A stretch of 64,000 nucleotides of DNA from a virus. The DNA is taken from the IMG/VR virus record IMGVR_UViG_3300045996_000464, positions 7,289 through 71,288 of that record, one strand, 5' to 3'. Shown in pieces: positions 20,469-34,526 of this stretch (the stretch's first letter is position 1; every line of letters begins with the position of its first letter). Position numbers and translations under genes: made by a program. Below the pieces are notes generated by a model. It saw only the letters and a list, made by a program, of their open reading frames with translations. It did no database searches and was not told the DNA's origin.

Positions 20469-20542
20469 GGGTCTTTAGCTCAGTGGAACAGAGCGGCGGT
20501 CTTCTAAACCGTAGGTCACAGGTTCGAATCCTGTAAGACTCA
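20469..20542 (+). tRNA. tRNA-Arg(TCT)
   Basis: Cloverleaf, anticodon loop CTTCTAA. Confidence 0.93.
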
Positions 20543-20593
20543 CTAGGATAGGCGGTTCGACTCCGCACCGAAAGGTTCCGGGAAAATCCGAAC

Positions 20594-20622
20594 TTGACAG
20601 CAAGATCGTCAGGTGGTAGTAT
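20594..20622 (+). promoter_or_regulatory. sigma-70-type promoter
   Basis: TTGACA-N17-TAGTAT upstream of a structured non-coding region. Confidence 0.65.
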
Positions 20623-20629
20623 GTTGATA

Positions 20630-20982
20630 GGTGCCTCCGACTCATGTGCTGGCGAGTCAACTCACCGAAAGTTTGGTGGGTAGGATGCAAAACCAAGGCC
20701 GCTTCTACAGGGTCAAGGGGGAGCAGAGAGAGCCTTTCACTCAACACGAGTGAGAACACTGTAGTAGCGCGTGGGATTGAACTACCCGCTGAGTTGCAGA
20801 AGCATGAACGAAGACTCTAGGTTCCAACCTAGGGAAACCGAAAAATGTGGAAACTCAAAGGCGGCGGGTTAGCAAGTGGCCTTTGATATATTACATGCCC
20901 CGCGCTTCTAGAGTCTTCTGACTCGACATAGTGTGATGCGATTGGTAAACGAAGTCGCCAAGGCTTCCCTGACCATCACACC
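20630..20982 (+). ncRNA. candidate large structured ncRNA (~350 nt)
   Basis: No plus-strand ORF; long-range helices GAAGACTCTAG/CTAGAGTCTTC and GTGTGATG/CATCACAC; GNRA loops; own promoter. Confidence 0.55.
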
Positions 20983-20986
20983 ATAT

Positions 20987-21059
20987 GGGGATGTAGCTCA
21001 GTTGGGAGAGCAATTGCTTTGCACGCAATAGGTCGCGGGTTCGACTCCTGTCATCTCCA
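20987..21059 (+). tRNA. tRNA-Ala(TGC)
   Basis: Cloverleaf with G3:U70. Confidence 0.95.
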
Positions 21060-21105
21060 CTTTAGCGCTAAACGTCTGGGCATAGCCGTAAAACTAACCC
21101 TTCGG

Positions 21106-21296
21106 CAGGACGTATGATCCCAGGTTGAAATTTACTGCCCTCTCAAGATAATATCTCACGACCCGTGTAAGCCGGGTGGGGTGGTCATTTGCAAGACCCT
21201 CTCCGGGTAGGAGGCCCAGCCGATAGGGCAGACATCGGCGGTCGTTACAGGCCACACTGTAACAGGGTGCGCCCTAAACAGCGTAACACGTCCTGC
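21106..21296 (+). ncRNA. candidate structured ncRNA
   Basis: GCAGGACGT/ACGTCCTGC closing helix; CTGCCCT/AGGGCAG and GTTACAG/CTGTAAC internal helices. Confidence 0.5.
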
Positions 21297-21345
21297 GCAG
21301 CCCGTTGGAGCATTGCGTTCCGCGAGGGATAGGCGGGGACACCAT

Positions 21346-21418
21346 AGGCAATTAGCTCAGTTGGGAGAGCGTCTGCTTTACACGCAGAGGGTCGGGGGTT
21401 CAAGTCCCTCATTGCCTA
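21346..21418 (+). tRNA. tRNA-Val(TAC)
   Basis: Cloverleaf, loop TTTACAC. Confidence 0.95.
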
Positions 21419-21551
21419 CTAGCGTTCGGATTCTGACGACACCGAACGTGGTGCATACACCGAAAAGTCAGCGGTGGGTAACTCCTAGAGATATGCACAA
21501 GCCGTGGCAACTGTAGCGCTCCTGATGGAGTGGCGAACCCTGCGGCTCCAT

Positions 21552-21633
21552 GCAGATATGGCGGAATAGGTATACGCGCTGGTCTTAGAAACCAGTGGGG
21601 TGACCCATGCAGGTTCGATTCCTGTTATCTGCA
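21552..21633 (+). tRNA. tRNA-Leu(TAG)
   Basis: Type II cloverleaf, loop CTTAGAA. Confidence 0.93.
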
Positions 21634-21764
21634 CTAGCTCTGGAAGGTCGAGACTTCGTAATTGCGGTCAGGCGCACAGAGCAGTAAGATCATCTCAGCA
21701 AGGTTTCTCAGGAGGGGATGGATAGCGGTTGCTGAGTGCTATCCATCCCCACAGGGGAATCCTC

Positions 21765-21838
21765 GGACGTGTAGCTAAGCGGCTCAAGGCAGGGGACTCT
21801 TAATCCCAAGATCGTAGGTTCGAATCCTACCACGTTCA
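21765..21838 (+). tRNA. tRNA-Lys(CTT)
   Basis: Cloverleaf, loop CTCTTAA. Confidence 0.92.
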
Positions 21839-21939
21839 TAGCAATGGGTACCGGGTAGTACGTGTGTGCGGCGTATCCGCATGGGCCATCGGTCAATCCG
21901 TCTAAGGTGTACAACAGGAACCCGACTTCATTGCAATTA

Positions 21940-22011
21940 GGATGCATGGCAGATTGGTTATGCAGGCGGCTCTTAACCGTCGAGATGTGGGTTCGATTCC
22001 TACTGCATCCA
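21940..22011 (+). tRNA. tRNA-Lys(CTT), second copy
   Basis: Cloverleaf, loop CTCTTAA. Confidence 0.9.
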
Positions 22012-22220
22012 CTAGTGTGGCCGGGGGCGTTCAGCCCTAAGGTAGCCGCAAGGCAAGGGAGTCTACGGACTCACTAGGTTCTAGTGACCTAGCCCTACGT
22101 CACACGCAATAGTAGCTGGTCGTGCGCCTATGACGGGCGTACATAGGGTTCGATTCCCTAGTGAGCCTGGAAGGGTCTACCGAGGGCGGCGTGGCAGAAA
22201 CCACGGATCAGTGAAGTTTA

Positions 22221-22300
22221 GTCCGTATGCTGGAATTGGTATACAGGCACGGTTGAGAGCCGTGTGCGGAAGCATCCGAGTTCGACTCTCGGTACGGACA
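22221..22300 (+). tRNA. tRNA-Leu(GAG)
   Basis: Type II cloverleaf, loop TTGAGAG. Confidence 0.92.
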
Positions 22301-22344
22301 TAGAAAGACCAAGATGCGAACGGTAATGTGTGGAGGTAATTCAC

Positions 22345-22407
22345 ATGACACTTGGTGGAATTCTAGTTGTAATTCTGATTGTTCTTGTTCTGCTCTGGCT
22401 ACTCTAA
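22345..22407 (+). CDS. 20-aa single-TM microprotein (MTLGGILVVILIVLVLLWLL)
   Basis: GGAGGT RBS; almost fully hydrophobic ORF. Confidence 0.6.
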   Translation: MTLGGILVVILIVLVLLWLL

Positions 22408-22424
22408 AGGCACAGAGCAGCCTA

Positions 22425-22498
22425 GTTCACGTAGCTCAGTCCGGTAGAGCTTTCGGTTGAAGCCCGAAGAGTCGGCGGTTCAAATCCGTCCGTGAACA
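22425..22498 (+). tRNA. tRNA-Phe(GAA)
   Basis: Cloverleaf, loop TTGAAGC. Confidence 0.92.
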
Positions 22499-22511
22499 CC
22501 TTTTGGAACCA

Positions 22512-22905
22512 CCTTCCCTGGGCAAAGCGGTAGCTCCGTGCGCCCTTATGGGTTGGTGGGTGGTATGGCGGAAAAGCGCCTAGTTGCCTTCTCGCAAGGC
22601 GGGTGGCTAGGTGTTGAACGCACGTCTGGCGAAAATCCTGGGCAACCAGGATGAGTAGTAGTCGAATGAAAGCATCATTGTTGTACCCAGGGGCTACCGC
22701 TGAGGGAGGCAATGGTGTGGGCGAGGCGCAACCTCGTACAGCGATGGCGCGGCAGCGCAGGAATGGTCGGAGAGAAACCTATGATAAAGGCAGCTTTGCC
22801 TCTCCGTGTGGGATGCCAAGACCCACTATCACATCCAAATCCTTTGATTGGATAGGACGACAGGGAGATACCACTGGGTGGTGTCGAGGCAGACAATTCT
22901 CCCAT
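22512..22905 (+). ncRNA. candidate large structured ncRNA (~400 nt)
   Basis: AGCGGTAGCTCC/GGGGCTACCGCT long-range helix; several GCAA-capped hairpins such as ATCCTGG-GCAA-CCAGGAT. Confidence 0.55.
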
Positions 22906-22909
22906 CCAT

Positions 22910-22983
22910 GCCCCATTGGATTAGTGGTTTAGATCGCTGCCCTCTCAAGGCAGAGAACACGGGTTCGAATCCCGTATGGGGTG
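22910..22983 (+). tRNA. tRNA-Glu(CTC)
   Basis: Cloverleaf, loop CTCTCAA. Confidence 0.93.
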
Positions 22984-23085
22984 CTAGCTCAATGAAGGTG
23001 GGCCGCTTTCATTCAAAACAGACTGGAATGGGCACTCACCAGAGAGTAACCGTAGGAAAATTATATGCTCCTGCGGGTTATTTGA

Positions 23086-23156
23086 TGGCGTATCGTCTAA
23101 TGGTAAGACGCGGGGCTGTTAACTCCGTTATTCAGGTTCGAATCCTGGTATGCCAG
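23086..23156 (+). tRNA. tRNA-Asn(GTT)
   Basis: Cloverleaf, U1-A72, loop CTGTTAA. Confidence 0.9.
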
Positions 23157-23266
23157 CTAAAATGAACCAGAGATGACGGGAACGACTTAGGGCGGGGGAG
23201 TTTCCCTCGTGAACAGCGAAAACTGTCGGAGAGAAAACTGGAAATCTGCGCCCTTGAAAGGCGTAG

Positions 23267-23339
23267 ACGTGTGTAGCTCAGTCAGGGAGAGCGGTCGGCT
23301 TTCAACCGATGGTCGTGGGTTCAAATCCCACCACAATGC
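23267..23339 (+). tRNA. degenerate tRNA, TTC anticodon on a Lys-like body
   Basis: D, anticodon (CTTTCAA) and T arms intact; outer acceptor stem mispaired. Confidence 0.6.
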
Positions 23340-23404
23340 AGACTTAATGGCGTGCTGCACGATCCGCAGCCGTGAAGCCTAGTCACGATACGACGGGCAA
23401 TTAA

Positions 23405-23476
23405 TCCCGGATGGCGAAGAGGAAACGCAGGCGGCTGTTAACCGTCCATTCGTAGGTTCGAATCCTACTCTGGGAG
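23405..23476 (+). tRNA. tRNA-Asn(GTT), second copy
   Basis: Cloverleaf, U1-A72. Confidence 0.92.
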
Positions 23477-23505
23477 CTAGTCTCGTAAGCAACACAGGAG
23501 ATGAG

Positions 23506-23870
23506 CATGAAGTAATGTAACAACCCTGCGTCCATAGGACACGAGGCGCGTGGCCACGAAGACCAAACCATGTTAGCCTTGAGGGAACACCTTATGTGGT
23601 TGGGGTGAATGTTACTGTCAGCCGAAGCGGGATCACGTCGCCAAGGAAGCCGGGAACGTCTTGCTAGGCAGCTAGTGCCATTGCGGTAACAGCTAGCTGT
23701 TGGGCCTAGTACAGCGAAAACTGTGCGGAGGGTCGCCCGTAAGGTAACGTTGATTATATTTGGTTTTGCTTCCCGTCGCTGCATTGCGGCTGGCGGGACA
23801 TTCATTTAGATGCTATTTATAGCTGGGCGGACAGCTAGAGCCGGGGTGATAAGCGTCGGCATCCGTCAAC
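23506..23870 (+). ncRNA. candidate structured ncRNA region
   Basis: Several helices; contains the GGGAACGTCTT...CAGCGAAAA motif; no plus-strand ORF. Confidence 0.45.
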
Positions 23871-23873
23871 CTA

Positions 23874-23961
23874 GGAGCGGTCGCATAGTTGGCCGATTGC
23901 GCGGGTTTGCTAAACCCGTATGTCTGAAAGGGCATCCAGGGTTCGAATCCCTGTCGCTCCG
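23874..23961 (+). tRNA. tRNA-Ser(GCT)
   Basis: Type II cloverleaf, G73. Confidence 0.93.
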
Positions 23962-24026
23962 TAGCTAGAAGTCGTCTCGCCGGTAAAGCCACAGGCTGTA
24001 AAGCGGAACCGTTCTCTAGCTTACTT

Positions 24027-24108
24027 GGAATGTGTCCGGGTGGTGAGGGCGCTGTCTTGAAAACAGTTGCGTCGTGAGGCGTTGCAGGTTCGAATCCTGT
24101 GCATTCCG
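24027..24108 (+). tRNA. tRNA-Ser(TGA), short atypical D-arm
   Basis: Acceptor GGAATGT/GCATTCC, loop CTTGAAA, long variable arm. Confidence 0.85.
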
Positions 24109-24202
24109 TAGAGTTAGTCCCGGTGTGTTGGCCCGTACAGCCAGAGTCCGGGCTTGACTAGGTTGATCGCCTAGGATTGCAGCATCAGAACCGCTAACTC
24201 GT

Positions 24203-24289
24203 GGTTACATCGCATAGTGGTCTAGTGCGCCCGCTTGGAAAGCGGGTTGGGAGGAAATGCCCTCGTAGGTTCGAATCCTACTGTAACCG
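24203..24289 (+). tRNA. tRNA-Ser(GGA)
   Basis: Type II cloverleaf. Confidence 0.93.
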
Positions 24290-24467
24290 TAGAGAAGATT
24301 GTAGACGATCTTGCAGTCGAAGGAATGTGTCGCCTGAGCAAGCAGCCGCATTCCAGTCTTCTCTTTAGTTTAGGTCATAGTAAGATGCGTTCGACTCGCA
24401 TTGAAAGCTTGGTGTGTCGCAGGGTCGTGCTGGCCAGCCCTCTGCGTGACTCCCTGATCTAAAGCTT

Positions 24468-24538
24468 GCGCGATACAGTCATGGCGACGAGTGGGCCTCC
24501 AAAACCTTACTGAGCGGGTTCGACTCCTGCATCGCGTG
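24468..24538 (+). tRNA. tRNA-Trp(CCA), atypical D-arm
   Basis: Acceptor GCGCGAT/ATCGCGT, G73, loop CTCCAAA; very small D-arm and irregular anticodon stem. Confidence 0.75.
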
Positions 24539-24688
24539 CTAAGTCCTTTGTTGCTTGCCGTCCGTGAGGTATCTAGAACCGTAGCGGGTAGCTCAGGGTT
24601 AGATTCCCTGATAGGGCCACAGCGCCCTAGGCTGAGGGAACCACGCCCTTAAAGCGTGGTATTCTCGGCAACACTGGACTCCGGTTTA

Positions 24689-24761
24689 GCATCGGGCGCG
24701 TCCGGTAGATGCAGCCGAGCTTATATCTCGGCAAGAGCAGGTTCGACTCCTGACCGATGTA
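24689..24761 (+). tRNA. tRNA-Ile(TAT), non-canonical fold
   Basis: Acceptor GCATCGG/CCGATGT, 5-bp D-stem, 6-bp anticodon stem around CTTATAT. Confidence 0.8.
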
Positions 24762-24879
24762 CTCTAGTGTGGCTACGTTGTGCTTGCTGGCACCATGGCA
24801 GGAAACTGAGGCTGACCGTCCCTGGCGTAGATGCGCACCACACTGGAATATTAACACCCTCTCTGACGTTGGAGTAAGT

Positions 24880-25140
24880 ATGGAAAAGACACTGTACAAG
24901 TTCTACGCAGACTGGTGCGGGCCGTGCAAGATCATGAATCCAGTGGTTGACAAACTAGTAAAGACTCATGGTCTGGTGTTGGTGTCTGTCAACATTGACG
25001 ACGAACCACATCGCGCGCACGATCACGATGTACGATCCATTCCTACGCTCGTCTTAGAGCATGAGGATGGCAGCAAGACTCGCGTGGTAGGCGTAAGGCC
25101 GTACTATGCAACCGAGCAGGCGCTAGGCTTAACCGCTTAG
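24880..25140 (+). CDS. trxA: thioredoxin
   Basis: FYADWCGPCK active site and VRSIPT; GGAG RBS. Confidence 0.9.
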   Translation: MEKTLYKFYADWCGPCKIMNPVVDKLVKTHGLVLVSVNIDDEPHRAHDHDVRSIPTLVLEHEDGSKTRVVGVRPYYATEQALGLTA

Positions 25141-25152
25141 CGTTTGCACCAT

Positions 25153-25229
25153 AGACGTGTATACCCTCGCTCTGATAAGGCGTAGAAAGGTTAGCAGGTT
25201 ACACAGTGGTTCGAATCCACTCACGTCTA
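25153..25229 (+). tRNA. rearranged tRNA-Ile(GAT) with a D-loop-like segment 3' of the anticodon arm
   Basis: Perfect acceptor AGACGTG/CACGTCT plus A73, perfect T-arm, anticodon arm CGCT-CTGATAA-GGCG; no D-arm at the normal position. Confidence 0.7.
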
Positions 25230-25412
25230 CTGGCGAAAGCCAATGTCAGGGCAATGCCTATGGACGTAGCGCTAGCCGCGACCATGGAACCGAAGGTCAG
25301 ATTGGATCGTTCTTAGATGGCCGGACTTTTCCGGTCTGCCGTTCGTGAAAACTGAAACCGAAATCCATGAGATGCTAGTAGGCGCGGGTACTGGCACCCT
25401 TTTTAGAAAGAA

Positions 25413-25569
25413 TGGCAATGCAGTAAGTGATTACAATTGGAGAAAGTGGCCGAACCCAACGGTGACCACGAGAACGTCTTGACACAAAGTGGACGAAAGG
25501 CTTAATTAGCTGAGTAGGTAGAAGCGGGTCGAGCGAAAAGCGTGCGAGTTGATCGGTGACGCATTGCCA
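25413..25569 (+). ncRNA. candidate structured ncRNA upstream of tmRNA
   Basis: TGGCAATGC/GCATTGCCA closing helix; GAGAACGTCTT...GAGCGAAAA motif. Confidence 0.5.
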
Positions 25570-25576
25570 GTTTTAT

Positions 25577-25915
25577 GGGGATGAAATGGTATCGATTGCC
25601 AAGTAAATGGCATAGTTGCGAGCAGTGGTGACCGAGGCCACTTAAATCACGGTCAAACCAATAAATGCAGAGAACACTTCTGTAGCAGACACCTTCCCGG
25701 CCGAATGGGCTGAGGATCGTCTAGCCGTCGCTGCGTAAACGGATCAACAGAAACGCAGTCCAATGGGACACCCGCGAGGCCATCCTAAATACAACGGGTC
25801 TTGCTGATTAAGGCGGCTCTTGCAGCCGTAACGGGACGCGGCACCTTAGCCAGCTACGCTCGTAGACGCTAGTTGTTTCTTGTGTAAGACGCGAGTTCGA
25901 CTCTCGCCATCTCCA
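25577..25915 (+). ncRNA. ssrA: tmRNA; tag (A)AENTSVADTFPAEWAEDRLAVAA
   Basis: GGGGATG/CATCTCCA Ala-type acceptor, stemless D-loop, 3' T-arm; ATAAAT-GCA resume site at 25667; tag ends in AA-stop. Confidence 0.95.
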
Positions 25916-26027
25916 CTTAAGTGTATCGCCCGCCCAATGCCGGTTGCCGCTGGCTACGGGGCAACGGGTACGGCGGCAACCGTATTCACAATATCGGCTG
26001 TAGGCCGAGGCGGTAGGTTATGAATCA

Positions 26028-26100
26028 AGCGGGTTACCATTCTGGTGAAAACGGGAGTCTCATAAGCTCTCCCAGACGGGTTCGATCCCCGTACCCGCTC
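26028..26100 (+). tRNA. tRNA-Met(CAT)-like, atypical D-arm
   Basis: Acceptor AGCGGGT/ACCCGCT, loop CTCATAA, good T-arm. Confidence 0.75.
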
Positions 26101-26149
26101 CCTTCGTCGCCTATCCGGTTAGGCTAATAACCCCGGTGTGGCGGCTCCT

Positions 26150-26221
26150 GGCACCTTGACCGAGTGGTTTAGGTAGTGGACTGCAAACCCACGCACGCGA
26201 GTTCGATTCTCGCAGGTGCCT
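26150..26221 (+). tRNA. tRNA-Cys(GCA)
   Basis: Cloverleaf, U73. Confidence 0.93.
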
Positions 26222-26275
26222 TGTGGTAACCCGATCAAATGACAGTCGTCATTCCTAAACTATCGGGAGGTTGTC

Positions 26276-26587
26276 ATGACCGTATACTACAGCCCTGAGC
26301 AGTGGAACCTAGAGCCGTTCGCGGAACTAGAGTTGACTGAGCCGGACTATAGCTTCGATCTGGTGGTCGTGTGGCGACACAAGGACACTGGCGAGTTGTA
26401 CTTCGCTCAAGACTCAGGATGTTCGTGCCCTTCTCCGTTCGAAGACTTCACTAGCATCGATGATCTGATCCTCTTGTCTACGGACAACGATTACGATTGC
26501 TTGATGCGTGTGACGGATCGAGCGGACAACCGCGCGAATCGTGTGAGCTTTCTACGGAAGGTTCACGCGGCGATGCAGACTGGATGA
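26276..26587 (+). CDS. hypothetical protein (DSGCSCPSPFE motif)
   Basis: GGGAGG RBS, 103 aa. Confidence 0.75.
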   Translation: MTVYYSPEQWNLEPFAELELTEPDYSFDLVVVWRHKDTGELYFAQDSGCSCPSPFEDFTSIDDLILLSTDNDYDCLMRVTDRADNRANRVSFLRKVHAAMQTG

Positions 26588-26633
26588 TGGAACGGTTGCA
26601 TGTTCGACCCATGCGCGTCCGCTGCTCGCACAA

Positions 26634-26707
26634 GCCCCTCTAGCCCAACTGGCAGAGGCAGTCGGCTTAAACCCGACACAGTAACGGTTCGAATCCGTTG
26701 AGGGGTA
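26634..26707 (+). tRNA. tRNA-Leu(TAA), short variable loop
   Basis: Cloverleaf, loop CTTAAAC; resembles actinobacterial Leu(UAA). Confidence 0.92.
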
Positions 26708-26710
26708 CTA

Positions 26711-26806
26711 GCTGTACATTGTTGGTTCGAATCCAACTCCCGGCACTCACGCCGGGATAGCGAAGTGGCAGACGCGCCCTGGCTCATAACTGGGGAGACG
26801 TGCGGT
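26711..26806 (+). tRNA. circularly permuted tRNA(CAT), Met-like
   Basis: Order is T-arm (26721-37), acceptor 3' strand TCCCGGC+A, linker CTCAC, acceptor 5' strand GCCGGGA, D-arm, anticodon arm with CTCATAA, AGAC; flanks GCTGTAC/GTGCGGT are complementary. Confidence 0.75.
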
Positions 26807-26886
26807 GTAGTCGAAGAGGGAAGGGAACGAATGTCTAAGCCAATCGGGTGGATGCTCGATAGCGACACGAAAACCTCCTGAGACGA

Positions 26887-26970
26887 GCAGGACTGGTGGA
26901 ATTGGTATACACGGCAGTCTCAAAAACTGCTGCCTTCACTGGCTTGCGGGTTCGAGTCCCGCGTCCTGTA
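26887..26970 (+). tRNA. tRNA-Leu(CAA)
   Basis: Type II cloverleaf. Confidence 0.94.
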
Positions 26971-27020
26971 CTTAAGCGTAGGTGAAAGCCCTACTGACAG
27001 CCTGGAAAGACGGGCACCAT

Positions 27021-27093
27021 GCCTCCGTAAGCTTAATGGTAGAGCTACGGTCTTTTAAACCGAGGGTTGCGGGTTCGATTCCTGCCGGGGGCA
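27021..27093 (+). tRNA. tRNA-Lys(TTT)
   Basis: Cloverleaf, loop CTTTTAA. Confidence 0.9.
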
Positions 27094-27245
27094 CTACAGA
27101 AGGAAAGAGCAAACCGTGACTGAGGAAGCTAACGGACGGATAAACACGAAGGTCGGTCGCGCCGATCAAGCTTCCTGCCCTTAATGAGTGGGTACTCACG
27201 TCGCGTAGGCCGTCCTATATCGCACCTTCTGTTTTAGATTCACAT

Positions 27246-27319
27246 GGCCCATTAGCTCAGAGGAATAGAGTGTCGCGCTTCGAACGCGAAGGTCGCAGGT
27301 TCGATCCCTGCATGGGTCG
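27246..27319 (+). tRNA. tRNA-Arg(TCG)
   Basis: Cloverleaf, loop CTTCGAA. Confidence 0.92.
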
Positions 27320-27589
27320 CTGGTGCTAGTAACGATGAGCGGAACGTAGCGTTAGGGATGAGGTTGTGGAGTCATGACGAAACAGCCAAGAGACAGCCCG
27401 TTGATCGCGTGACAGTCGCTCGTAACTAGAGTGTGAGACAGGTATGTCCGCCACGGCCTGAAAAGGAAGGTGCCTCCACCGGACGCACGATTAAGTGCAG
27501 GGATCAGGAGGGTAAATGTAACGGAGCGCTCCGAGCGACGACAGCCCCCGTTTCTTGCACGTCACCAACTTTTGTGATAGGATGTACCT

Positions 27590-27769
27590 ATGGCACAAAA
27601 GAAGAACGTAGCTCAGACATCTGGCTGGCGCGGCAGGCAAGACAAGACTCGCCAGGACAGGATGCCAGCAGGGCAACGAGCGCGAGCAGTAGCACAGCAG
27701 GATCGCGTAAGTTGGATGAAGGAAACCAAGCCTACGTGCAGCAGGCATTGGACGTATCGCGAACATTGA
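27590..27769 (+). CDS. basic hypothetical protein (59 aa, probably leaderless)
   Basis: Hand-translated MAQKKNVAQ...; ATG 6 nt after TTGCAC-N17-TAGGAT. Confidence 0.5.
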   Translation: MAQKKNVAQTSGWRGRQDKTRQDRMPAGQRARAVAQQDRVSWMKETKPTCSRHWTYREH

Positions 27770-27783
27770 AAACTTAGAGAAGC

Positions 27784-27858
27784 CAGGATATAGCTCAGCT
27801 TGGACAGAGTGCGCCCCTCGGACGGGTGAGGCCGTAGGTTCGAATCCTACTATCCTGA
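27784..27858 (+). tRNA. tRNA-Pro(CGG)
   Basis: Cloverleaf, C1-G72, loop CTCGGAC. Confidence 0.92.
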
Positions 27859-27929
27859 TCAGATGTATGCCTAGAGTTGTCGGCTCTGTAGGCACCGGGT
27901 GGCCACCCGATTAAATTGAACCGTCACCA

Positions 27930-28005
27930 CAGTGTGTAGCTCAGTTTGGTTTAGAGTACTCGCCTTGGACGCGAGAGGCCGTTGGTTCGAATCCAACCAC
28001 ACTGA
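27930..28005 (+). tRNA. tRNA-Pro(TGG)
   Basis: Cloverleaf, loop CTTGGAC. Confidence 0.93.
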
Positions 28006-28098
28006 TAGCACTCTCCGAGGGCGCTATATGCGTTAAGAAGCGGAGGTTCTCAAAGTTGGGCGAAAGCTCTGCGGCGAAGAGTAGGAGAGGGCGATTCA

Positions 28099-28173
28099 CA
28101 GGATATAGCTCAGTCTGGTTAGAGTACTTCGTTGGGGACGAAGAAGCCGCAAGTTCGAATCTTGCTATCCTGA
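28099..28173 (+). tRNA. tRNA-Pro(GGG)
   Basis: Cloverleaf, loop TTGGGGA. Confidence 0.93.
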
Positions 28174-28202
28174 CTCGATTCTCCGTACACGGAATAGGTG
28201 AC

Positions 28203-28442
28203 ATGTGGGCGAGAATCTTCTACGGGCCGAGCGATTGGTTCATTCATCATACTAACGCACGACAGCGAGCAGCCATTAACTTTTGGTTGCTCTTCATCTG
28301 GATCATTCCAGGCGTCTTCATCTGGTACGTACTGCGAGATGCGCTGTGGTTCGTAGGCTTCATGAGCATTTACGCAATCTGGGTTAGCCACTTCGGTGGA
28401 TTCAGCGCAGAGACGCCCGTAGAAAACGAGAATGGCGACTAG
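28203..28442 (+). CDS. small membrane protein (2 TM)
   Basis: ATG after AGGTG; two hydrophobic Trp-rich segments. Confidence 0.65.
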   Translation: MWARIFYGPSDWFIHHTNARQRAAINFWLLFIWIIPGVFIWYVLRDALWFVGFMSIYAIWVSHFGGFSAETPVENENGD

Positions 28443-28717
28443 GCTACCAACCTAGGTCAGTACACAAGCCTCCCACTGAGATGTGGGGCATCGGGACGAT
28501 ACGCCCCTCAAAAGGCGGAACGTCTTGATGTTTGGTGGACAGGTCACCGGACGGTCTTGCCTTGGCAGGATCGAGCAGCCCGGTAAAGTCGCACTCAATC
28601 GACGGTTAGAGTGTTGACAGAATTATAGGTGCGCGGCCTAACGGAGTCTAGTGGTGAGGGCTTTTCTCCCCGTCTTCACGCAACACTGCCCTGTTCAGAA
28701 CAGCGGTGTTGCTCCAT

Positions 28718-28788
28718 TCCTGGATCGTCTAACGGTAGGACAGCGGCCTCTGAAGCCGTATATGGTGGTTCGAATCCATCTCCGGGAG
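28718..28788 (+). tRNA. tRNA-Gln(CTG)
   Basis: Cloverleaf, U1-A72. Confidence 0.93.
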
Positions 28789-28810
28789 CTAGCCGCAAGG
28801 CTGAATTGTT

Positions 28811-29068
28811 GGTGCTTCAAGTCAGCGACGAGTCAAGGCCGTGTAGGGCCGCTTAAGCAGAGCCGTCTGAGCGATCACCTATGCGGGTGTTCGCGGTCGG
28901 TACAACTCGTAGACACAACGAAGCCTAACCTCACAAGAGTAGGTGGTGGAGGGTACCTAACCTGGGTGAAATTAGAAAACATGCATGGGTACGAAGACCA
29001 TAGCGGCCTGGGGAAACCACTGAGGGTATGAGGGAAAGTCTGCTCACGGAGTGAGCGGAGCCAGCACC
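28811..29068 (+). ncRNA. candidate structured ncRNA (~260 nt)
   Basis: GGTGCT/AGCACC closure and internal hairpins; lies between two tRNAs. Confidence 0.4.
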
Positions 29069-29082
29069 GTGTAAGGTACAAA

Positions 29083-29160
29083 GCCAGTTCGCCCAAGGTG
29101 GGCACGGCGGCTGTAACCCGCCCGTCTCAGACACGATAGGTTCGATTCCTATAGCTGGCA
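29083..29160 (+). tRNA. tRNA-Tyr(GTA), compact D-arm
   Basis: Acceptor GCCAGTT/AGCTGGC, loop CTGTAAC, long variable arm, 5-nt D-loop. Confidence 0.85.
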
Positions 29161-29256
29161 TAGTTGTGAAAGCCGCACAGAAGGGCAAAGGGTGCTTATG
29201 CCCGGACAGGTCTTGCTAAGGAAAATGACACCCCTCTTTAGCGTCACAACTAACTC

Positions 29257-29297
29257 GCTAGTATAGTAGTCTGGCTGACTACACCCGGCTGTAACCC
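29257..29297 (+). pseudogene. orphan 5' half of a tRNA-Tyr(GTA)
   Basis: GCTAGTA, D-arm and CCCGG-CTGTAAC-CC, then breaks off just before the HNH ORF. Confidence 0.7.
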
Positions 29298-29303
29298 TTT
29301 GTT

Positions 29304-29669
29304 TTGGGTTACATCGCGCAGGTAATTGGCATGAGAGACAGAAATGCTTATGCGCGAGACGTTACGTACCGTAAACCGGGACGCAAAGAGTACATAATAG
29401 CGTCTAACAAAAAGCGGCGAGCAGCAACCGTACAAAGGTTGCGCGATTACAAGTTAGAACATGGTTGCGCTGAGTGCGGCTTTAATGACTGCGCTAGTGC
29501 CCTAGACTTCCATCACCGTAATGGTGACGAGAAGTTGTTTAGCCTCGGTTCAGCAGCAGCCCAGGATTATGGATGGGATAGGCTCGCAGCCGAGATAAAG
29601 AAATGCGATATTCTTTGCGCAAATCATCATCGCATGAAGAATTGCAAATGTCACGCTAGCATGGTGTAA
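29304..29669 (+). CDS. HNH endonuclease (homing-type)
   Basis: CAECG...LDFHH...EIKKCDILCANHHR motifs. Confidence 0.85.
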   Translation: MGYIAQVIGMRDRNAYARDVTYRKPGRKEYIIASNKKRRAATVQRLRDYKLEHGCAECGFNDCASALDFHHRNGDEKLFSLGSAAAQDYGWDRLAAEIKKCDILCANHHRMKNCKCHASMV

Positions 29670-29725
29670 AGGTTGCACACTGGTCTGTAAAACCACGAGA
29701 CTAGGTTCGATTCCTAGTGCTAGCA
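29655..29725 (+). tRNA. tRNA-Tyr(GTA), short variable loop
   Basis: Acceptor GCTAGCA/TGCTAGC, loop CTGTAAA; overlaps the HNH stop codon. Confidence 0.88.
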
Positions 29726-29792
29726 CTCGATGAGATGATGACAAAGCTATCGGTCGTCACGCCTATGACCTAGGTCGAAGAGGATAGCACGA

Positions 29793-29868
29793 TCCAAGGT
29801 TACTCTGTTGGCACGGGTGGCGCGGCTTTGAACCGTTGCAATCGTGGGTTCGATTCCTACCCTTGGAA
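29793..29868 (+). tRNA. tRNA-Gln(TTG)
   Basis: U1-A72, loop CTTTGAA, irregular anticodon stem. Confidence 0.82.
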
Positions 29869-30031
29869 CTGAGCAGGAGAACTACATGGCGATTGAGGGC
29901 CACGAACCCAAGAGCATCGTCTAACGGATGAACCTGCTGCGGGTGTACGGGTCGTGCCGTTACCCTAAGTTGCACGAAGAGGCGTTTGACGGTAGCCACA
30001 ACTTCGCTAACCCAGAGGGAAACCGTCGCTT

Positions 30032-30105
30032 GATGCTGTCGTCTAGAGGCTTAAGGCACCGCCCTGTCACGGCGGATATCGCGGGTTCGAATCCCGTCAG
30101 CATCG
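30032..30105 (+). tRNA. tRNA-Asp(GTC)
   Basis: Cloverleaf, G73. Confidence 0.93.
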
Positions 30106-30209
30106 TATGGGTCACAGTAGGTGATTCAGCCGGAATCGGCAGCTAGTCTTGTACCTCCCGTTGGGGTCGTGCCCAACAATAGGGTGCTGTACATGTGCCC
30201 CGGCAGCAA

Positions 30210-30282
30210 CGCCCCTTAGTTCATTGGTCTAGAACGCCCGCCTGTCCAGCGGAAGAGACGAGTTCGATTCTCGTAGGGGTGG
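30210..30282 (+). tRNA. tRNA-Asp(GTC), second copy
   Basis: Cloverleaf, loop CTGTCCA. Confidence 0.88.
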
Positions 30283-30495
30283 CTGAATTCACTACTAATG
30301 AATCGTGGTCTGTGCCAACTGTCATAGACGCCGAACATACACAAGAACACCTTGCCATCGCGCGGGGTGATAGGAAGGTAACAAGCCTTGTGAATCCCAA
30401 TTCCTGGCAAGGCTGGATTGGGAACCTTCCGAACAAGGGTTACGTCCAGCGCCCCATCCGTAGAGGGTGGTAAGCGGGGGTAGCGTGCCCACCAT

Positions 30496-30569
30496 ATCAG
30501 AGTCGTCTAATGGTCAAGGACACCAGACTTTCAATCTGGGCAATGCGGGTTCGACTCCCGTCTCTGATA
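30496..30569 (+). tRNA. tRNA-Glu(TTC)
   Basis: Cloverleaf, loop CTTTCAA. Confidence 0.93.
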
Positions 30570-30638
30570 CTAACTCGATGGATATCACATCGGGGGCGCA
30601 TGGGGTGCAATTCCCATTAGAAACATGCGCTTGCTTTA

Positions 30639-30712
30639 GCATCAGTAGCTCAGTGGTAGAGCATCCGCGACATGGTAGCGGAAGGTCATGGGTTCGATCC
30701 CCATCTGGCGCT
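30639..30712 (+). tRNA. tRNA-like gene with a 9-nt anticodon loop (GACATGGTA)
   Basis: Normal D and T arms; TCCGC/GCGGA stem; anticodon not assignable. Confidence 0.7.
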
Positions 30713-30830
30713 CTGGTGATACGTAACGGTGGCCTACGCTTCGGCGGACAATAGTGCGCCTAAGTCGTATCACCAACATTCAGGTCGGAGCTTACCCGAT
30801 ACACAGGAAATCCTATTGTTAGGAGCTACT

Positions 30831-30992
30831 ATGTATCACCGATCTGATGCCAGTCTCCGACGCATCGCAAAGAAGCGCGCGAAGAGACATGGTACTACGG
30901 CAAAGGACTTCAAACGGAAGGGCTTGCGGAGGCGCTGGCTCGTTCATCAGCTAGCCGGACATAACGGCTACAAGAACACCGATTTGCCGTAA
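30831..30992 (+). CDS. small basic protein (53 aa)
   Basis: AGGAG RBS before ATG; Arg/Lys-rich. Confidence 0.55.
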   Translation: MYHRSDASLRRIAKKRAKRHGTTAKDFKRKGLRRRWLVHQLAGHNGYKNTDLP

Positions 30993-31033
30993 ACGACAAG
31001 GTGGACTCCTAAACGTGCAGGGGAGTCCGTCAC

Positions 31034-31105
31034 GCCAGCTTAAGCCTAATGGTAGGGCACATCCCTTGTAAGGATGGGGTACGGGTTCGATTCCTGTAGT
31101 TGGCT
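31034..31105 (+). tRNA. tRNA-Thr(TGT)
   Basis: Cloverleaf, loop CTTGTAA. Confidence 0.92.
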
Positions 31106-31107
31106 CT

Positions 31108-31184
31108 GTGGATGAAGCTAAAGTGGCCGAAGCTCTGGGTTGTGATCCCAGCGAAAGCGGGTTCAAGTCCCGTCATCCACCCCA
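31108..31184 (+). tRNA. tRNA-His(GTG)
   Basis: Cloverleaf, C73, encoded CCA; T rather than G at position -1. Confidence 0.92.
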
Positions 31185-31185
31185 C

Positions 31186-31260
31186 GGTGAACGGGTAGCC
31201 TTTGGCGGCTACGGCGGGTTGTGATCCCGTTGGCAGCGAGTTCGATTCTCGTCGTTTACC
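31186..31260 (+). tRNA. tRNA-His(GTG), extended D-stem
   Basis: G-1:C73; GTAGCC/GGCTAC D-stem. Confidence 0.85.
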
Positions 31261-31265
31261 CTTAA

Positions 31266-31379
31266 GCGGACGTAGCTCAGTTGATGAGAGCATCGTGGCG
31301 TTAACCCACTCGCGCTAGAGCGCTCTAGGTGCGGTGGCTGTCACGAAGGTCGGAGGTTTGATTCCTCCCGTTCGCTCCA
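31266..31379 (+). ncRNA. tRNA-Gly-like body with a ~44-nt structured insert replacing the anticodon loop
   Basis: Acceptor GCGGACG/CGTTCGC+TCCA, D and T arms; TCGTG/CACGA stem extended into a long hairpin. Confidence 0.7.
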
Positions 31380-31445
31380 TGTTCCGGTGTGGTTCCACGG
31401 TTCTCACATCGGCCGCTGACAGACCCGTGGTTCCTGTCAGCATTC

Positions 31446-31518
31446 GCCTGACTGGTGCTAATGGATAGCATACGTCGTTGGTATCGACGGGGACAGAGTT
31501 CGATTCTCTGGTTAGGCT
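31446..31518 (+). tRNA. tRNA-Thr(GGT)
   Basis: Cloverleaf, loop TTGGTAT. Confidence 0.92.
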
Positions 31519-31612
31519 TGTGACCCACTACATGGAGGCGCACACATGCGCAACTCACTTGCCCAAACCATGTAGGTAGCAATAGTGCTACCTCATCGTT
31601 TGGGAGGTAAAG

Positions 31613-31798
31613 TTGGCCAGAAAGTCTCAGGCCGAAATTGATCTTGGTTCTCTTGGCAAGGGCAAGAAGAAGGACAAGAAGAACAAGAATCGCAAGTACG
31701 GGCGTAACCTCAAGAAGTGCGCCAACTACCGCTTGCGCGTCGGTAAGCCCCTCGGAAGAGGCGTATCCGGCAACAAGCGCGGCAAGAGCCACGTTTAA
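31613..31798 (+). CDS. small highly basic protein (61 aa)
   Basis: GGGAGGT RBS before TTG; Lys/Arg-rich. Confidence 0.65.
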   Translation: MARKSQAEIDLGSLGKGKKKDKKNKNRKYGRNLKKCANYRLRVGKPLGRGVSGNKRGKSHV

Positions 31799-31802
31799 AT
31801 AT

Positions 31803-31877
31803 GGGAGTAGTCAAGGTTCAAATCCTTGCCCTGGCCCCACAAGGGTCGGGAGGTAGTGTTAGCGGGCGCACGCTCCC
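31803..31877 (+). ncRNA. YrlA-like / permuted tRNA-like RNA
   Basis: GGGAG/CTCCC closing stem encloses T-arm, then acceptor-like hairpin, then D-arm. Confidence 0.7.
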
Positions 31878-31925
31878 CTACATCATCGGGTATGGATTCC
31901 GCCCGAGGCCCAAAAGGGATCACCC

Positions 31926-31998
31926 GCCAATCAAGCTTAAGTGGCTAAGCGCCTGTTTCGTAATCAGGAGGTTCTCGGTTCGAATCCGGGGATTGGCT
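31926..31998 (+). tRNA. tRNA-Thr(CGT)
   Basis: Cloverleaf, loop TTCGTAA. Confidence 0.88.
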
Positions 31999-32039
31999 TA
32001 CACTCCTAAATCAAAACCCACCATTGTGTACGGAGACGC

Positions 32040-32291
32040 ATGAAGAAACTACTACTCGTTCCGGTCATGGCCCTCGCGCTGTTCGTTGGCGCAGCGGCAG
32101 CACCGGCTAAGACCCCGGTGTTCGGCACCGAGGATTCATGTGCGGCAAGCTTCTCAATCGAGAATGCTCAAGCATGTGGCTCTAACCCGACACCCTATAT
32201 CGTTCACTGTAGCTATAACTCATCCACTGGCCACTACTTCGTCGGCTGGTCGGACGGACGCTGGTACTACAACCCGAACGGCTGCTGGTAG
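32040..32291 (+). CDS. small secreted Cys-containing protein
   Basis: GGAG RBS; MKK-hydrophobic-AxA signal peptide; 4 Cys. Confidence 0.7.
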   Translation: MKKLLLVPVMALALFVGAAAAPAKTPVFGTEDSCAASFSIENAQACGSNPTPYIVHCSYNSSTGHYFVGWSDGRWYYNPNGCW

Positions 32292-32477
32292 AAACACGGT
32301 GGGCCACCAGCCGTTCAAATGGTGGCTATAAGGTTGGTTTCAATGAAAAAGAACACTGGAATCGCAGCTTACAGGCTGATCCTGCGGAAACGGCCATGGT
32401 ACCGTAGATGGTACGCCCTGACGCTCTATTTTTACTACCGTACTAAGATCAGGCTCACATCTCACCTGTAATGGGTG

Positions 32478-32552
32478 ATGAGTACGATCCTAATCCTAGT
32501 AGTTCTGGCCGTAATCCTGGTATGGGTTCTCTGGCCAGACATTCGGAGGTAA
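32478..32552 (+). CDS. 24-aa single-TM microprotein
   Basis: Hand-translated MSTILILVVLAVILVWVLWPDIRR. Confidence 0.45.
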   Translation: MSTILILVVLAVILVWVLWPDIRR

Positions 32553-32555
32553 GAA

Positions 32556-32663
32556 ATGTCAAAGGGTGACAAGGTAGAAGTACAGGCAGCGCAGAAGGGT
32601 AGCCCCAAGAAGGGTTCTGGCTGGCGCAACGTAGGCAAGAAGCTACGCCGAAAGAAGAAGTAA
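32556..32663 (+). CDS. 35-aa basic microprotein
   Basis: GGAGGT RBS; MSKGDKV...KKLRRKKK; TAATG overlap with the next gene. Confidence 0.6.
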   Translation: MSKGDKVEVQAAQKGSPKKGSGWRNVGKKLRRKKK

Positions 32664-32914
32664 TGAGCGAGCTAGAAGAGACAGCCAAGCGGCTAGCTAA
32701 GGCTAGCGAAACAATCTATTCCAAGGCGGATGAAATCAAGGCTGTCGCGGATCAGTTGCGTTCGGACGTAGATGTTCTTACGGAACGACTCGACGCGGTT
32801 GAAAGTGATGCAACTCACGTTGCAGAGAATCTAACCGCAACTAGTGAGAAGGTTGAGGGGCAGCAAGTTAAGCAGGATGATCGTCTAGACACTCTAGAGA
32901 ACGGCAACACATAG
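32663..32914 (+). CDS. coiled-coil hypothetical protein
   Basis: 83 aa with heptad-like pattern. Confidence 0.65.
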   Translation: MSELEETAKRLAKASETIYSKADEIKAVADQLRSDVDVLTERLDAVESDATHVAENLTATSEKVEGQQVKQDDRLDTLENGNT

Positions 32915-32985
32915 GCTATTAACTCAGTTGGGAGAGTACCTCGTTGACATCGAGGAAGTCACTGGTTCAAGTCCAGTATAGCCTA
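32913..32985 (+). tRNA. tRNA-Val(GAC)
   Basis: Cloverleaf, loop TTGACAT. Confidence 0.94.
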
Positions 32986-32990
32986 CTCAT

Positions 32991-33062
32991 GGGGAATTAG
33001 TGCTAACGGGAACACATCGGTTTTGCATACCGAAATTAAGGGTTCGACTCCCTTATTCTCCA
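32991..33062 (+). tRNA. tRNA-Ala(TGC), second copy
   Basis: Cloverleaf, G3:U70. Confidence 0.92.
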
Positions 33063-33082
33063 CTTTGTGCTATACTTAGAGT

Positions 33083-33226
33083 ATGACCGAGAAGATGAAA
33101 GTCAAAGGTTCCAGCGAGGTTGTCCAGGTCACCGGCAAGAGCGGCGATTATTACCGCGTCTACGTCAAGGGTGTGTCTGGTTACTATCACGACTGGTACC
33201 ACAAAGATCAGTTGACTCCCGCATAA
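33083..33226 (+). CDS. 47-aa SH3-like microprotein (probably leaderless)
   Basis: Hand-translated MTEKMKVKG...WYHKDQLTPA; ATG 6 nt after TGC-TATACT. Confidence 0.55.
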   Translation: MTEKMKVKGSSEVVQVTGKSGDYYRVYVKGVSGYYHDWYHKDQLTPA

Positions 33227-33295: not shown

Positions 33296-33345
33296 TAGCT
33301 CGTTCGTGGGTGAGGGTACCCAATATGACCATGTTCGGGCTTTCA

Positions 33346-33955: not shown

Positions 33956-33957
33956 TT

Positions 33958-34525: not shown

Positions 34526-34526
34526 T

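Follow-up and report, generated by a model that had tools for sequence, protein, structure and literature searches.

A circularly permuted tRNA-like element in the tRNA array of a soil phage, best filed as a new variant among the YrlA-like tRNA mimics

Can a phage encode a transfer RNA (tRNA) whose 3' half precedes its 5' half, and what would such a molecule be good for? This question is raised by a locus of the IMG/VR virus record IMGVR_UViG_3300045996_000464, a 71.3-kb metagenome assembly of a soil phage that is 48% complete according to CheckV. The stretch of DNA analysed here, called the window below, has a length of 64,000 nucleotides and comprises bases 7289-71288 of this record. In its tRNA array, the element 26709-26811 (+ strand) consists of a T arm and a 3' acceptor strand that lie 5 nt upstream of the matching 5' acceptor strand, which is followed by a D arm and a CAU anticodon arm. 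An earlier interpretation made from the letters alone (the sequence-only reading) had described it as a permuted tRNA gene split in the variable region. This observation is confirmed, and the interpretation built on it is partly supported. The element is best filed as a new variant in the YrlA-like family of permuted tRNA mimics, characterized by a full anticodon arm, closure at the variable-arm position, and no nearby Ro60 gene. YrlA is the tRNA-like Y RNA of bacteria and mycobacteriophages (Rfam RF02553), as described in the excerpted text of Chen et al. 2014 (PMC4201824). The parts of the element are, from 5' to 3':

26709-26717, + strand: closing helix at the variable-arm position, 5' strand, with GCTGTAC at 26711-26717, according to RNAfold and duplex energy
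26721-26737, + strand: T arm with a 5-bp stem and the canonical loop TTCGAAT, according to the sequence and a local Rfam tRNA match (model positions 36-71, 15.5 bits)
26738-26745, + strand: 3' acceptor strand (26738-26744) and discriminator A (26745), with 7/7 Watson-Crick pairs to 26751-26757
26746-26750, + strand: acceptor-closing loop CTCAC, the predicted RNase P leader and 3' trailer, according to the sequence
26751-26757, + strand: 5' acceptor strand, according to pairing, with a putative RNase P site 5' of G26751 that is predicted from M. smegmatis YrlA
26758-26776, + strand: TA, D arm (26760-26775; 3-bp stem, loop with GG and AGA) and G26, according to the sequence and the ARAGORN drawing of the swapped form
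26777-26795, + strand: anticodon arm with a 6-bp stem (two adjacent G-U pairs), the loop CTCATAA and the anticodon CAT at 26785-26787, according to the sequence, RNAfold and ARAGORN
26800-26809, + strand: 3' strand of the closing helix (GTGCGGT at 26800-26806), followed by a bulged G and TA, according to RNAfold and duplex energy

Every coordinate that the sequence-only reading had assigned to the halves holds in the sequence. Between the two halves, no part of a tRNA is missing and none is duplicated. All designed pairs are standard or G-U pairs (28/28), and the invariant tRNA positions U8, A14, the GG of the D loop, U33, and the T loop TTCGAAT are intact by inspection. The nucleotides AGAC connect the anticodon arm with the 3' closing strand. 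The anticodon stem departs from that of a canonical tRNA, as it comprises 6 bp, or is preceded by two linker bases, instead of having 5 bp and the single base 26. The first two letters of the loop CTCAC are CT, as in the trailers of 25 out of 40 array tRNAs; it encodes C74 only and not the full CCA. The closing (flank) helix between 26711-26717 and 26800-26806 has 7 bp, three of them G-U, and an energy of -8.6 to -9.1 kcal/mol. Its first bases are also part of the trailer motif CTAGC, which is seen after several other tRNAs of the array.

The order of the parts is not that of a canonical tRNA: the element was called neither by ARAGORN nor by the Rfam gathering search, and only its 3' half gave a local match of 15.5 bits. 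For the swap test, the halves were re-ordered by a script, CCA was added, and the variable region was set to 24-29 nt. At the default threshold of ARAGORN, 18 of the 18 swapped forms were identified as tRNA, 15 of them as Met(cat), which bears out the complete cloverleaf with a 7/7 acceptor stem that had been proposed for the swapped halves. In the controls, none of 500 shuffles and one of 500 random windows swapped in the same manner gave a call, and the native order gave none (0). The first swapped form, which had a 29-nt variable region and lacked CCA, was not called by ARAGORN. The minimum free energy structure deduced by RNAfold for 26709-26811 contains all proposed helices except the D stem; the fold energy is not significant (z -1.3). 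A hidden Markov model of the 3' half that was built in this analysis yielded the T arm of the element as its top orphan match, and the corresponding model of the 5' half was too weak to recover the element's own 5' half. When the whole window was scanned, only one T arm was found that has a 7/7 Watson-Crick complement within 40 nt downstream and a subsequent D-arm start; it belongs to this element.

The locus is present in reads. Logan contigs of two runs from two independent soil studies, X1 (26624-26786) and X4 (26667-26817), show 0 differences across the junction of the halves; one of the two runs may be the source sample. Since the junction is spanned without differences in the contigs of two studies, it is not the assembly chimera that the sequence-only reading had considered. 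The Logan contigs contain no variants inside the element and therefore offer no covariation. In one further X4 soil contig, position 26676, which belongs to the anticodon arm of the tRNA upstream, is joined to 26720, where the T arm of the element starts; 5 other letters separate the two positions. This contig could represent an ordinary tRNA that is related and has an identical T arm.

The element is also a member of a recurrent class. Two narrow patterns, which fixed the T loop, 3 of the 7 acceptor pairs and the D-arm start, gave 20 and 116 matches in viral contigs, respectively. A 7/7 acceptor hairpin and no full tRNA on either side were found in 9/20 and 45/116 of these matches, compared to about 2% expected by chance for the remaining four pairs. 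Counting the element of the window and the units of Streptomyces phage Jay2Jay and of locus L123, there are 49 distinct closed-acceptor elements. In 13 of the 49, the discriminator is followed by CCA (0.8 expected, P 5e-13); out of 48 elements, 34 have a pyrimidine at position -1. Both features fit a hairpin that is opened to a tRNA-like 3' end. Several elements occur in tandem pairs, and the Rfam YrlA model scores 30-39 bits on them. Folding of 14 elements gave, for 13 of them, the plain topology of YrlA, in which the D arm is immediately followed by the 3' strand; the one at L160 has a further hairpin after the D arm. The Ro60 (TROVE) gene was found in one of six viral records with such elements (G006) and is absent from three records that are 91-100% complete. 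Most closed-acceptor elements lie in records without TROVE, two complete proviruses among them. They are located at the IMG/VR loci L160-L296, G002 and G004, with up to five in a row at G012:206261-207609. The closed-acceptor class is thus common in viral contigs and mostly unannotated, and its described part is YrlA. If these elements are real RNAs, then ARAGORN, tRNAscan-type tools and the Rfam cut-offs overlook a component that phage tRNA arrays commonly contain.

The subclass of the window's element, in which an anticodon arm follows the D arm, is rarer. Five analogues possess the whole order; they are listed with their scores for R1, a model built in this analysis.

G007, L298:3201-3296, + strand: R1 38.3 bits; anticodon loop CTTGTAA; record 94% complete
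G008, L299:3179-3278, + strand: R1 40.2 bits; anticodon loop CTATTAA; record 88% complete
G009, L300:3199-3293, - strand: R1 42.3 bits; anticodon loop CTCAATAA (8 nt); record 87% complete
G010, L301:3247-3343, + strand: R1 40.3 bits; anticodon loop TAGTAAT; record 11% complete
G011, L302:3229-3316, - strand: R1 40.2 bits; anticodon loop ATATAGA; record 16% complete

All five lie inside tRNA arrays and on the tRNA strand, and with the halves swapped, ARAGORN identifies each of them as tRNA for 48-53 of its 72 junction variants. An anticodon-type hairpin begins 19-20 nt past position 8 in the window's element and in four of the five analogues; the hairpin of G009, which has the 8-nt loop, was placed separately. 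In all five, as in the window's element, position -1 of the acceptor loop is a pyrimidine and position -2 an A, and the T arm of G008 is identical to that of the window, with an acceptor loop that differs by one base. The Rfam YrlA model matches G007-G011 in the core only or not at all (0-29 bits). In an alignment of all six sequences, 97.9% of the cells are paired, compared to 71.3% after shuffling and 31-47% for slid partners, and 18 of the 28 pairs have changed on both sides. The close pair G010/G011 gives a cleaner signal than these pair counts: it displays compensatory changes in the acceptor, anticodon and closing stems, and its anticodon loops differ at 5/7 bases. Judged from these sequences, the changing loop appears to fit a mimic better than a decoder. 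Searches of GenBank phages with blastn gave no match for G007 and G010; the match of G009 was rejected as a homologue, as it covers only a Tyr/Ile tRNA junction in Bacillus phages.

Related units also exist in cultured phages. Gordonia phage GodonK (NC_048176.1, ~81439-81690; L304:1490-1741) contains two tandem, unannotated closed-acceptor units in its tRNA array, one of which overlaps the small annotated hypothetical ORF gp205 on the opposite strand. With R1, the first unit reaches 40.7 bits and the second 26.9 bits; the YrlA model gives the second 38.2 bits. The 5' flank of the first unit contains the same 8-mer as that of the window's element, at the same spacing to the T arm. Both units have an encoded CCA in their loops, and the complete GodonK genome has no TROVE gene. 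In Jay2Jay, a YrlA-like unit (39.8 bits) directly follows a tRNA at a distance of 5.5 kb from the TROVE gene. The units of both phages and the analogues G007-G011 share with the window's element the position in a tRNA array, the tRNA strand, the canonical T arm, the closed 7-bp acceptor stem and the D arm. In contrast to the window's element, the Jay2Jay unit and the first GodonK unit lack an anticodon arm; G007-G011 differ from it in their anticodon loops. Because the subclass holds every part of a tRNA including the anticodon arm, it is placed between Y RNA-type mimics and real tRNAs. The role of the tRNA-like module of bacterial Y RNAs, and its charging, thereby become a testable question; as GodonK, which carries related elements, can be cultured on G. 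terrae 3612, it is feasible to map ends, test charging and make knock-outs.

A crystal structure of the tRNA-like domain of YrlA reportedly exists. According to the excerpted text of Chen et al. (PMC4201824), YrlA adjoins Ro60 genes in >250 bacteria and 22 phages (Table S2 there). The same excerpts report that YrlA of M. smegmatis has a 7-bp acceptor stem, that the RNA of E. coli RNase P cuts it at the predicted site in vitro, and that a cleaved, CCA-tailed form is present in vivo. For YrlA of S. Typhimurium and Yrn1 of D. radiodurans, they describe no cleavage; the 7-bp acceptor stem, which M. smegmatis YrlA possesses and the uncleaved examples do not, is considered the likely determinant of RNase P cleavage (PMC4201824, excerpts). 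In actinobacterial YrlAs, a hairpin with an anticodon-like 7-nt loop precedes the T arm, and the place of the anticodon stem is taken by the pairing of the two RNA ends (likewise excerpted from PMC4201824).

The element of the window shares with YrlA the order of T arm, acceptor-like stem closed by a short loop, and D arm, and its T and D loops are likewise tRNA-like. Like M. smegmatis YrlA in the published excerpts, it has a 7-bp acceptor with A73 and C74, and its anticodon loop is the same 7-mer as the anticodon-like loop of Gordonia YrlA in that source. Furthermore, YrlA is present in actinobacteria-infecting phages of the same broad group as the window phage: cluster C mycobacteriophages, which are portal relatives of the latter, carry Ro60 and YrlA, and in mycobacteriophage Cane17 a YrlA-like unit lies beside the TROVE gene. 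The differences concern the ends. Those of YrlA close at the anticodon-stem position and an extra hairpin precedes the T arm, whereas in the window's element the D arm is followed by the anticodon arm, which is the order of a real tRNA, and the ends close at the variable-arm position. Since its helix starts 3 nt past the upstream tRNA, there is no room for a Ro-binding 5' strand, and the motif GNCGAAN0-1G is absent 5' of the element. The sequence GTCGAAG at 26810-26816, 3' of the element, was rejected as a Ro-binding motif, as the motif has 73 copies in the window and this one is at chance level. Judged by its sequence, the element thus falls short of YrlA proper.

Other permuted RNAs are more distant. 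Circularly permuted tRNA genes occur in Cyanidioschyzon, other algae and Thermofilum. They mature via a bulge-helix-bulge that is cut by the archaeal/eukaryal splicing endonuclease, and via a circular intermediate, to an ordinary one-piece tRNA. A bacterial precedent is the two-piece transfer-messenger RNA (tmRNA) from permuted ssrA genes (Rfam RF04321), in which a cut transcript gives rise to paired RNAs with a tRNA-like CCA end. For the prasinovirus BpV1, one permuted tRNA has been reported (PMC3673656). The element of the window resembles the permuted tRNAs of algae, Thermofilum and BpV1 in that the 3' half lies upstream of the 5' half of one tRNA and the gene is missed by standard finders; it differs from them by its bacterial-type setting and by a product that is likely to consist of two pieces. 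With the two-piece tmRNA it has in common the permuted gene and, as proposed here, two paired RNAs, but it lacks an mRNA-like reading frame and pseudoknots; RF04321 gave only weak artefactual matches elsewhere in the window. By eye, no bulge-helix-bulge is seen in the flanks of the element, which form a plain 7-bp helix and one G bulge in RNAfold. No RNA ligase or splicing endonuclease was found among the 75 window open reading frames (ORFs) scanned in Pfam and the 32 scanned in PHROGs; many ORFs have no family, and the record covers about half of the genome. On these results, the circular intermediate with subsequent ligation that the sequence-only reading had offered as one route has no support. 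Its statement that no permuted tRNA is known from a phage has to be revised as well, in view of the YrlA-type permuted tRNA-like RNAs in 22 phages (PMC4201824, excerpts) and of the BpV1 tRNA (PMC3673656). Full-text literature searches, which miss most subscription journals, gave no report of a permuted or split tRNA in a bacteriophage.

We tentatively favor the following explanation, to which we assign somewhat less than an even chance: the element would be a functional permuted RNA of the YrlA kind, a tRNA mimic that is matured to a nicked, CCA-tailed two-piece molecule and does not serve as a routine decoder. A mimic is preferred over a routine decoder because of the 6-bp anticodon stem, the three other CAU tRNAs that ARAGORN finds in the same array, and the unconstrained loops of the analogues. 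We infer that the element is transcribed together with the tRNA array. Its 5' end would be made by the 3' processing (trimming) of the upstream tRNA, and its 3' side would be freed by the RNase P cut at the 5' end of tRNA-Leu(CAA). The T arm stacked on the closed 7-bp acceptor would then be taken as a tRNA by RNase P, which would cut between C26750 and G26751; the enzyme could be that of the host or could contain the phage's own RNase P RNA (33956-34263), a link suggested by the presence of that gene. Finally, the CUCAC tail would be trimmed and CCA added. This cut, the trimming and the CCA addition are expected because the T arm on a 7-bp acceptor is the cleavage determinant named for M. smegmatis YrlA (PMC4201824, excerpts). 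The same precedent, which the sequence-only reading had not cited, makes its similar proposal of RNase P cleavage, 3' trimming and CCA addition plausible, as a prediction for this element.

The predicted products would be a first piece of ~40 nt with the T arm and the CCA end, and a second piece of ~60 nt with the 5' acceptor strand, the D arm and the CAU anticodon arm. They would be kept together by the acceptor stem, by contacts between the D and T loops and by the flank helix; in silico, the two pieces co-fold into a cloverleaf. As a tRNA mimic, the molecule might act as a partner or decoy for tRNA-binding proteins, the candidates being a host Ro60/Rsr particle or tRNA-targeting enzymes.

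Several findings weigh against this explanation. No close homologue of the exact element was found by DNA-pattern scans of viral and metagenome contigs, and searches via the DUF7574 ORF or DnaE gave no relatives in viral contigs. As these searches yielded no close relative, the locus itself offers no covariation. The pair counts of the six-row alignment lean to structure, as the rows were chosen for helices and the alignment was fitted to R1. Between anticodon arm and closing helix, the window's element lacks an extra hairpin that all five analogues possess. No RNA run is among the read sets that contain the locus. The 71-kb record, itself 48% complete, has no TROVE gene, and none of the five analogue records, three of which are 87-94% complete, has one above the cut-off. 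On the element, the Rfam YrlA model scores 13.6 bits (cut-off 69) and covers model positions 29-81, the T-acceptor-D core only; this score is unspecific, because tRNA-tRNA junctions of the same contig reach 12-24 bits. The clamp at the variable arm that had been proposed earlier does pair over 7 bp in RNAfold, but is statistically weak (2.7-14% of controls): depending on the control, its energy is reached by 2.7% (geometry-limited), 7.7% or 14% of random spacer pairs. Finally, tRNAs that look degenerate, weak or interrupted are also found in the array, so that decay products do occur there.

The search for relatives produced a number of candidates that were rejected. Three pattern matches in viral contigs are chance matches inside coding sequence, and a blastn search of GenBank phages with 26600-27000 gave matches to the flanking Leu tRNAs only. 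Rhodococcus phage E3 does not offer a related locus, as its DUF7574 homologue is not near tRNAs. The eight top-scoring R1 loci in eight actinophage genomes lie on annotated tRNAs, except for the YrlA-like unit of Jay2Jay; both matches in Streptomyces phage BillNye are on annotated tRNAs, and E3 and Gordonia phage Pupper gave no R1 matches. Within the window, no paralogue of either half was found (best local scores 15 and 18).

Among the other explanations, the one that survives best, though it is unlikely, is that the element is a true decoding tRNA, used by the ribosome either as two pieces or as one piece after ligation at the flank helix. Once cut by RNase P and supplied with CCA, it would accept Met via CAU and A73, or Ile after lysidine formation, and the break at the tip of a long variable arm would be harmless. 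The canonical loop CTCATAA, the discriminator A, and the intact signatures of acceptor, T loop and D loop agree with decoding, as do the assignment of the swapped form to tRNA-Met by ARAGORN and the location of the break, where class II tRNAs have a protruding arm. So do the co-fold of the two pieces in silico, the CCA enrichment in the wider class, and the canonical loops CTTGTAA and CTATTAA of two analogues. Chen et al. remark in the excerpted text that the cleaved, CCA-tailed YrlA of M. smegmatis 'could potentially be aminoacylated' (PMC4201824). A polynucleotide-kinase-like ORF (15733-16164) is present in the window, and related Streptomyces phages have RNA ligases beside the DUF7574 gene. 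A decoder is disfavored by the anticodon stem, which has 6 bp (or two bases between it and the D stem) and two adjacent G-U pairs, by the three CAU tRNAs already present in the array, and by the loops of the analogues, which are non-canonical in TAGTAAT and ATATAGA, 8 nt long in CTCAATAA, and not kept between G010 and G011. Moreover, no ligase is found among the window ORFs that were scanned. The general form of this idea, namely that phage arrays hide chargeable split tRNAs and that the window's element is cut by RNase P, perhaps with the phage's own RNase P RNA, CCA-tailed and aminoacylated via CAU to deliver Met (or Ile) as two pieces, is quite unlikely. If true, it would be the first permuted or split decoding tRNA of the bacterial world, and the nick in the variable arm might give resistance to host defences that target the anticodon loop or the acceptor.

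We consider it just as improbable as that general form that the mimic stays closed, i.e. that the 5-nt loop is never cut and a one-piece, tRNA-shaped RNA of ~100 nt results, as with S. Typhimurium YrlA. This RNA and D. radiodurans Yrn1 are described as uncleaved in the excerpts of Chen et al. (PMC4201824), the one-piece fold is the minimum-energy structure, and the loop encodes C74 only and not CCA. On the other hand, the 7-bp acceptor, the likely RNase P determinant, is present both here and in M. smegmatis YrlA (PMC4201824, excerpts), and the CCA enrichment of the class points to an exposed 3' end.

Quite doubtful, to the same degree, is a functionless, decaying relic of a tandem tRNA duplication whose first copy lost its 5' part and whose second copy lost its 3' part. 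The array does contain tandem tRNAs that are separated by 2-4 nt (31108-31184, 31187-31261 and 31266-31376), together with weak or interrupted tRNAs, orphan T-arm hairpins, and an HNH endonuclease gene; the closing helix is near chance, and neither a close homologue nor an RNA run with the locus was found in the searches described above. However, it would take two deletions whose ends coincide within a few bases of the variable region and which leave exactly the parts of one tRNA. As the window has no paralogue of either half, the duplication would have to be old, which contrasts with the intact state of all pairs and invariant bases. Furthermore, outside of tRNA dimers, every examined unit of T arm, 7/7 acceptor hairpin and D arm belongs to a recurrent structured class; many such units are arranged in tandem or encode CCA, and five analogues possess the whole order. 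An assembly chimera of two tRNA fragments, which could arise in a metagenome assembly from repeat-rich tRNA arrays, is practically negligible, as the junction, and once the whole element, is covered by short Logan contigs of two runs and two studies with 0 differences.

The genomic surroundings of the element are those of a phage with a bacterial-type host. The window contains genes for tail and baseplate proteins, a DnaE-type polymerase, RecA, ribonucleotide reductase, terminase and portal; the tmRNA, the class A RNase P RNA, RecA, DnaE and sigma-70-like genes point to the bacterial type. The portal is ~40% identical to that of actinobacteriophage myoviruses (Mycobacterium cluster C, Gordonia phage Pupper and Rhodococcus phage Finch), and the DnaE is ~30% identical to that of the same group. 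The array at 20469-35059 comprises 45 tRNAs and the tmRNA according to ARAGORN, all on the + strand, and a few more tRNAs according to Rfam. The tmRNA at 25577-25918 is a one-piece molecule of the ordinary kind (ARAGORN, Rfam). The permuted element lies between two array tRNAs on the tRNA strand and begins 1-3 nt past the upstream one; on the + strand of 25900-27400, no promoter-like or terminator-like site was found. A minus-strand ORF (26563-26868) that overlaps the element was rejected as a gene, as it has no family and also overlaps a tRNA. The flanking genes and the RNase P RNA-like gene are:

26634-26708, + strand: upstream tRNA(TAA), which has a short variable loop, according to ARAGORN; Rfam tRNA 53 bits at 26634-26707
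26887-26971, + strand: downstream tRNA-Leu(CAA), according to ARAGORN and Rfam
33956-34263, + strand: RNase P RNA-like gene (class A) within the tRNA array, according to Rfam RF00010 (64.4 bits, E 3e-19)

The RNase P RNA-like gene has a length of 308 nt, spans the full model with a score below the 100-bit cut-off, and contains both conserved P4 strands, GAGGAAAGUCCGGGC and ACAGAACCCGGCUUA. No RNase P RNA gene was found in five related GenBank phages; among 12 other viral records, one has an RNase P RNA of 200 nt (G006:11709-11908). Among the papers listed by a full-text literature search on phage-encoded RNase P RNA, no title or abstract opening mentions a phage-borne gene. The gene suggests that some phages bring their own tRNA-processing ribozyme.

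Additional observations concern other ORFs and tRNAs of the array. The ORF 15733-16164 (- strand) is a polynucleotide-kinase-like P-loop ORF (AAA_33; PHROG polynucleotide kinase), and no ligase was recognised nearby; in BillNye, a DUF7574 homologue adjoins a polynucleotide kinase and two RNA ligases. The HNH endonuclease ORF is located at 29304-29669 (+ strand). The tRNA(TAA) at 26634-26708 has a class I short variable loop, yet is named Leu by ARAGORN; an array tRNA with the anticodon ATG at 30639-30713 is named His. At 31266-31376 (+ strand), Rfam finds a tRNA (47.6 bits) with 44 nt between the strands of the anticodon stem, which the intron mode of ARAGORN interprets as tRNA-Ala(ggc) interrupted by a 35-nt intron on the 5' side of the anticodon. 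A 14-nt palindrome without mismatches lies in the insert, whose length is far below that of a group I intron. The 8-mer GTGCGGTG, which the insert of this 111-nt tRNA has in common with the permuted element, was dismissed, as it occurs at chance frequency (3 found, 2.35 expected).

Three tRNA-like genes on the + strand are missed by default ARAGORN. The one at 24468-24539, a weak tRNA-Trp(cca) whose D arm is unusual, is called only at a lowered threshold, in an array that otherwise lacks Trp; those at 25153-25229 and 23270-23335 reach Rfam tRNA scores of 30.7 and 52.6 bits, respectively. Orphan T-arm-like hairpins with a 5-bp stem (4/5 pairs at 20551) and a TTCNANN loop lie outside the called tRNAs at 20033, 20551, 22144, 24385, 26598 and 31812 (+ strand); they may be relics or further tRNA-like modules. 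The spacer 24542-24688 (+ strand), located between two tRNAs, folds far better than shuffled sequences (z -4.1, 0/200) into a closed multi-branch structure that includes a hairpin resembling a T arm, a directly adjoining hairpin of 6 bp, and a 7-bp stem capped by the loop CCUUAAA. According to this predicted fold, it may be a second tRNA-like or Y-like RNA.

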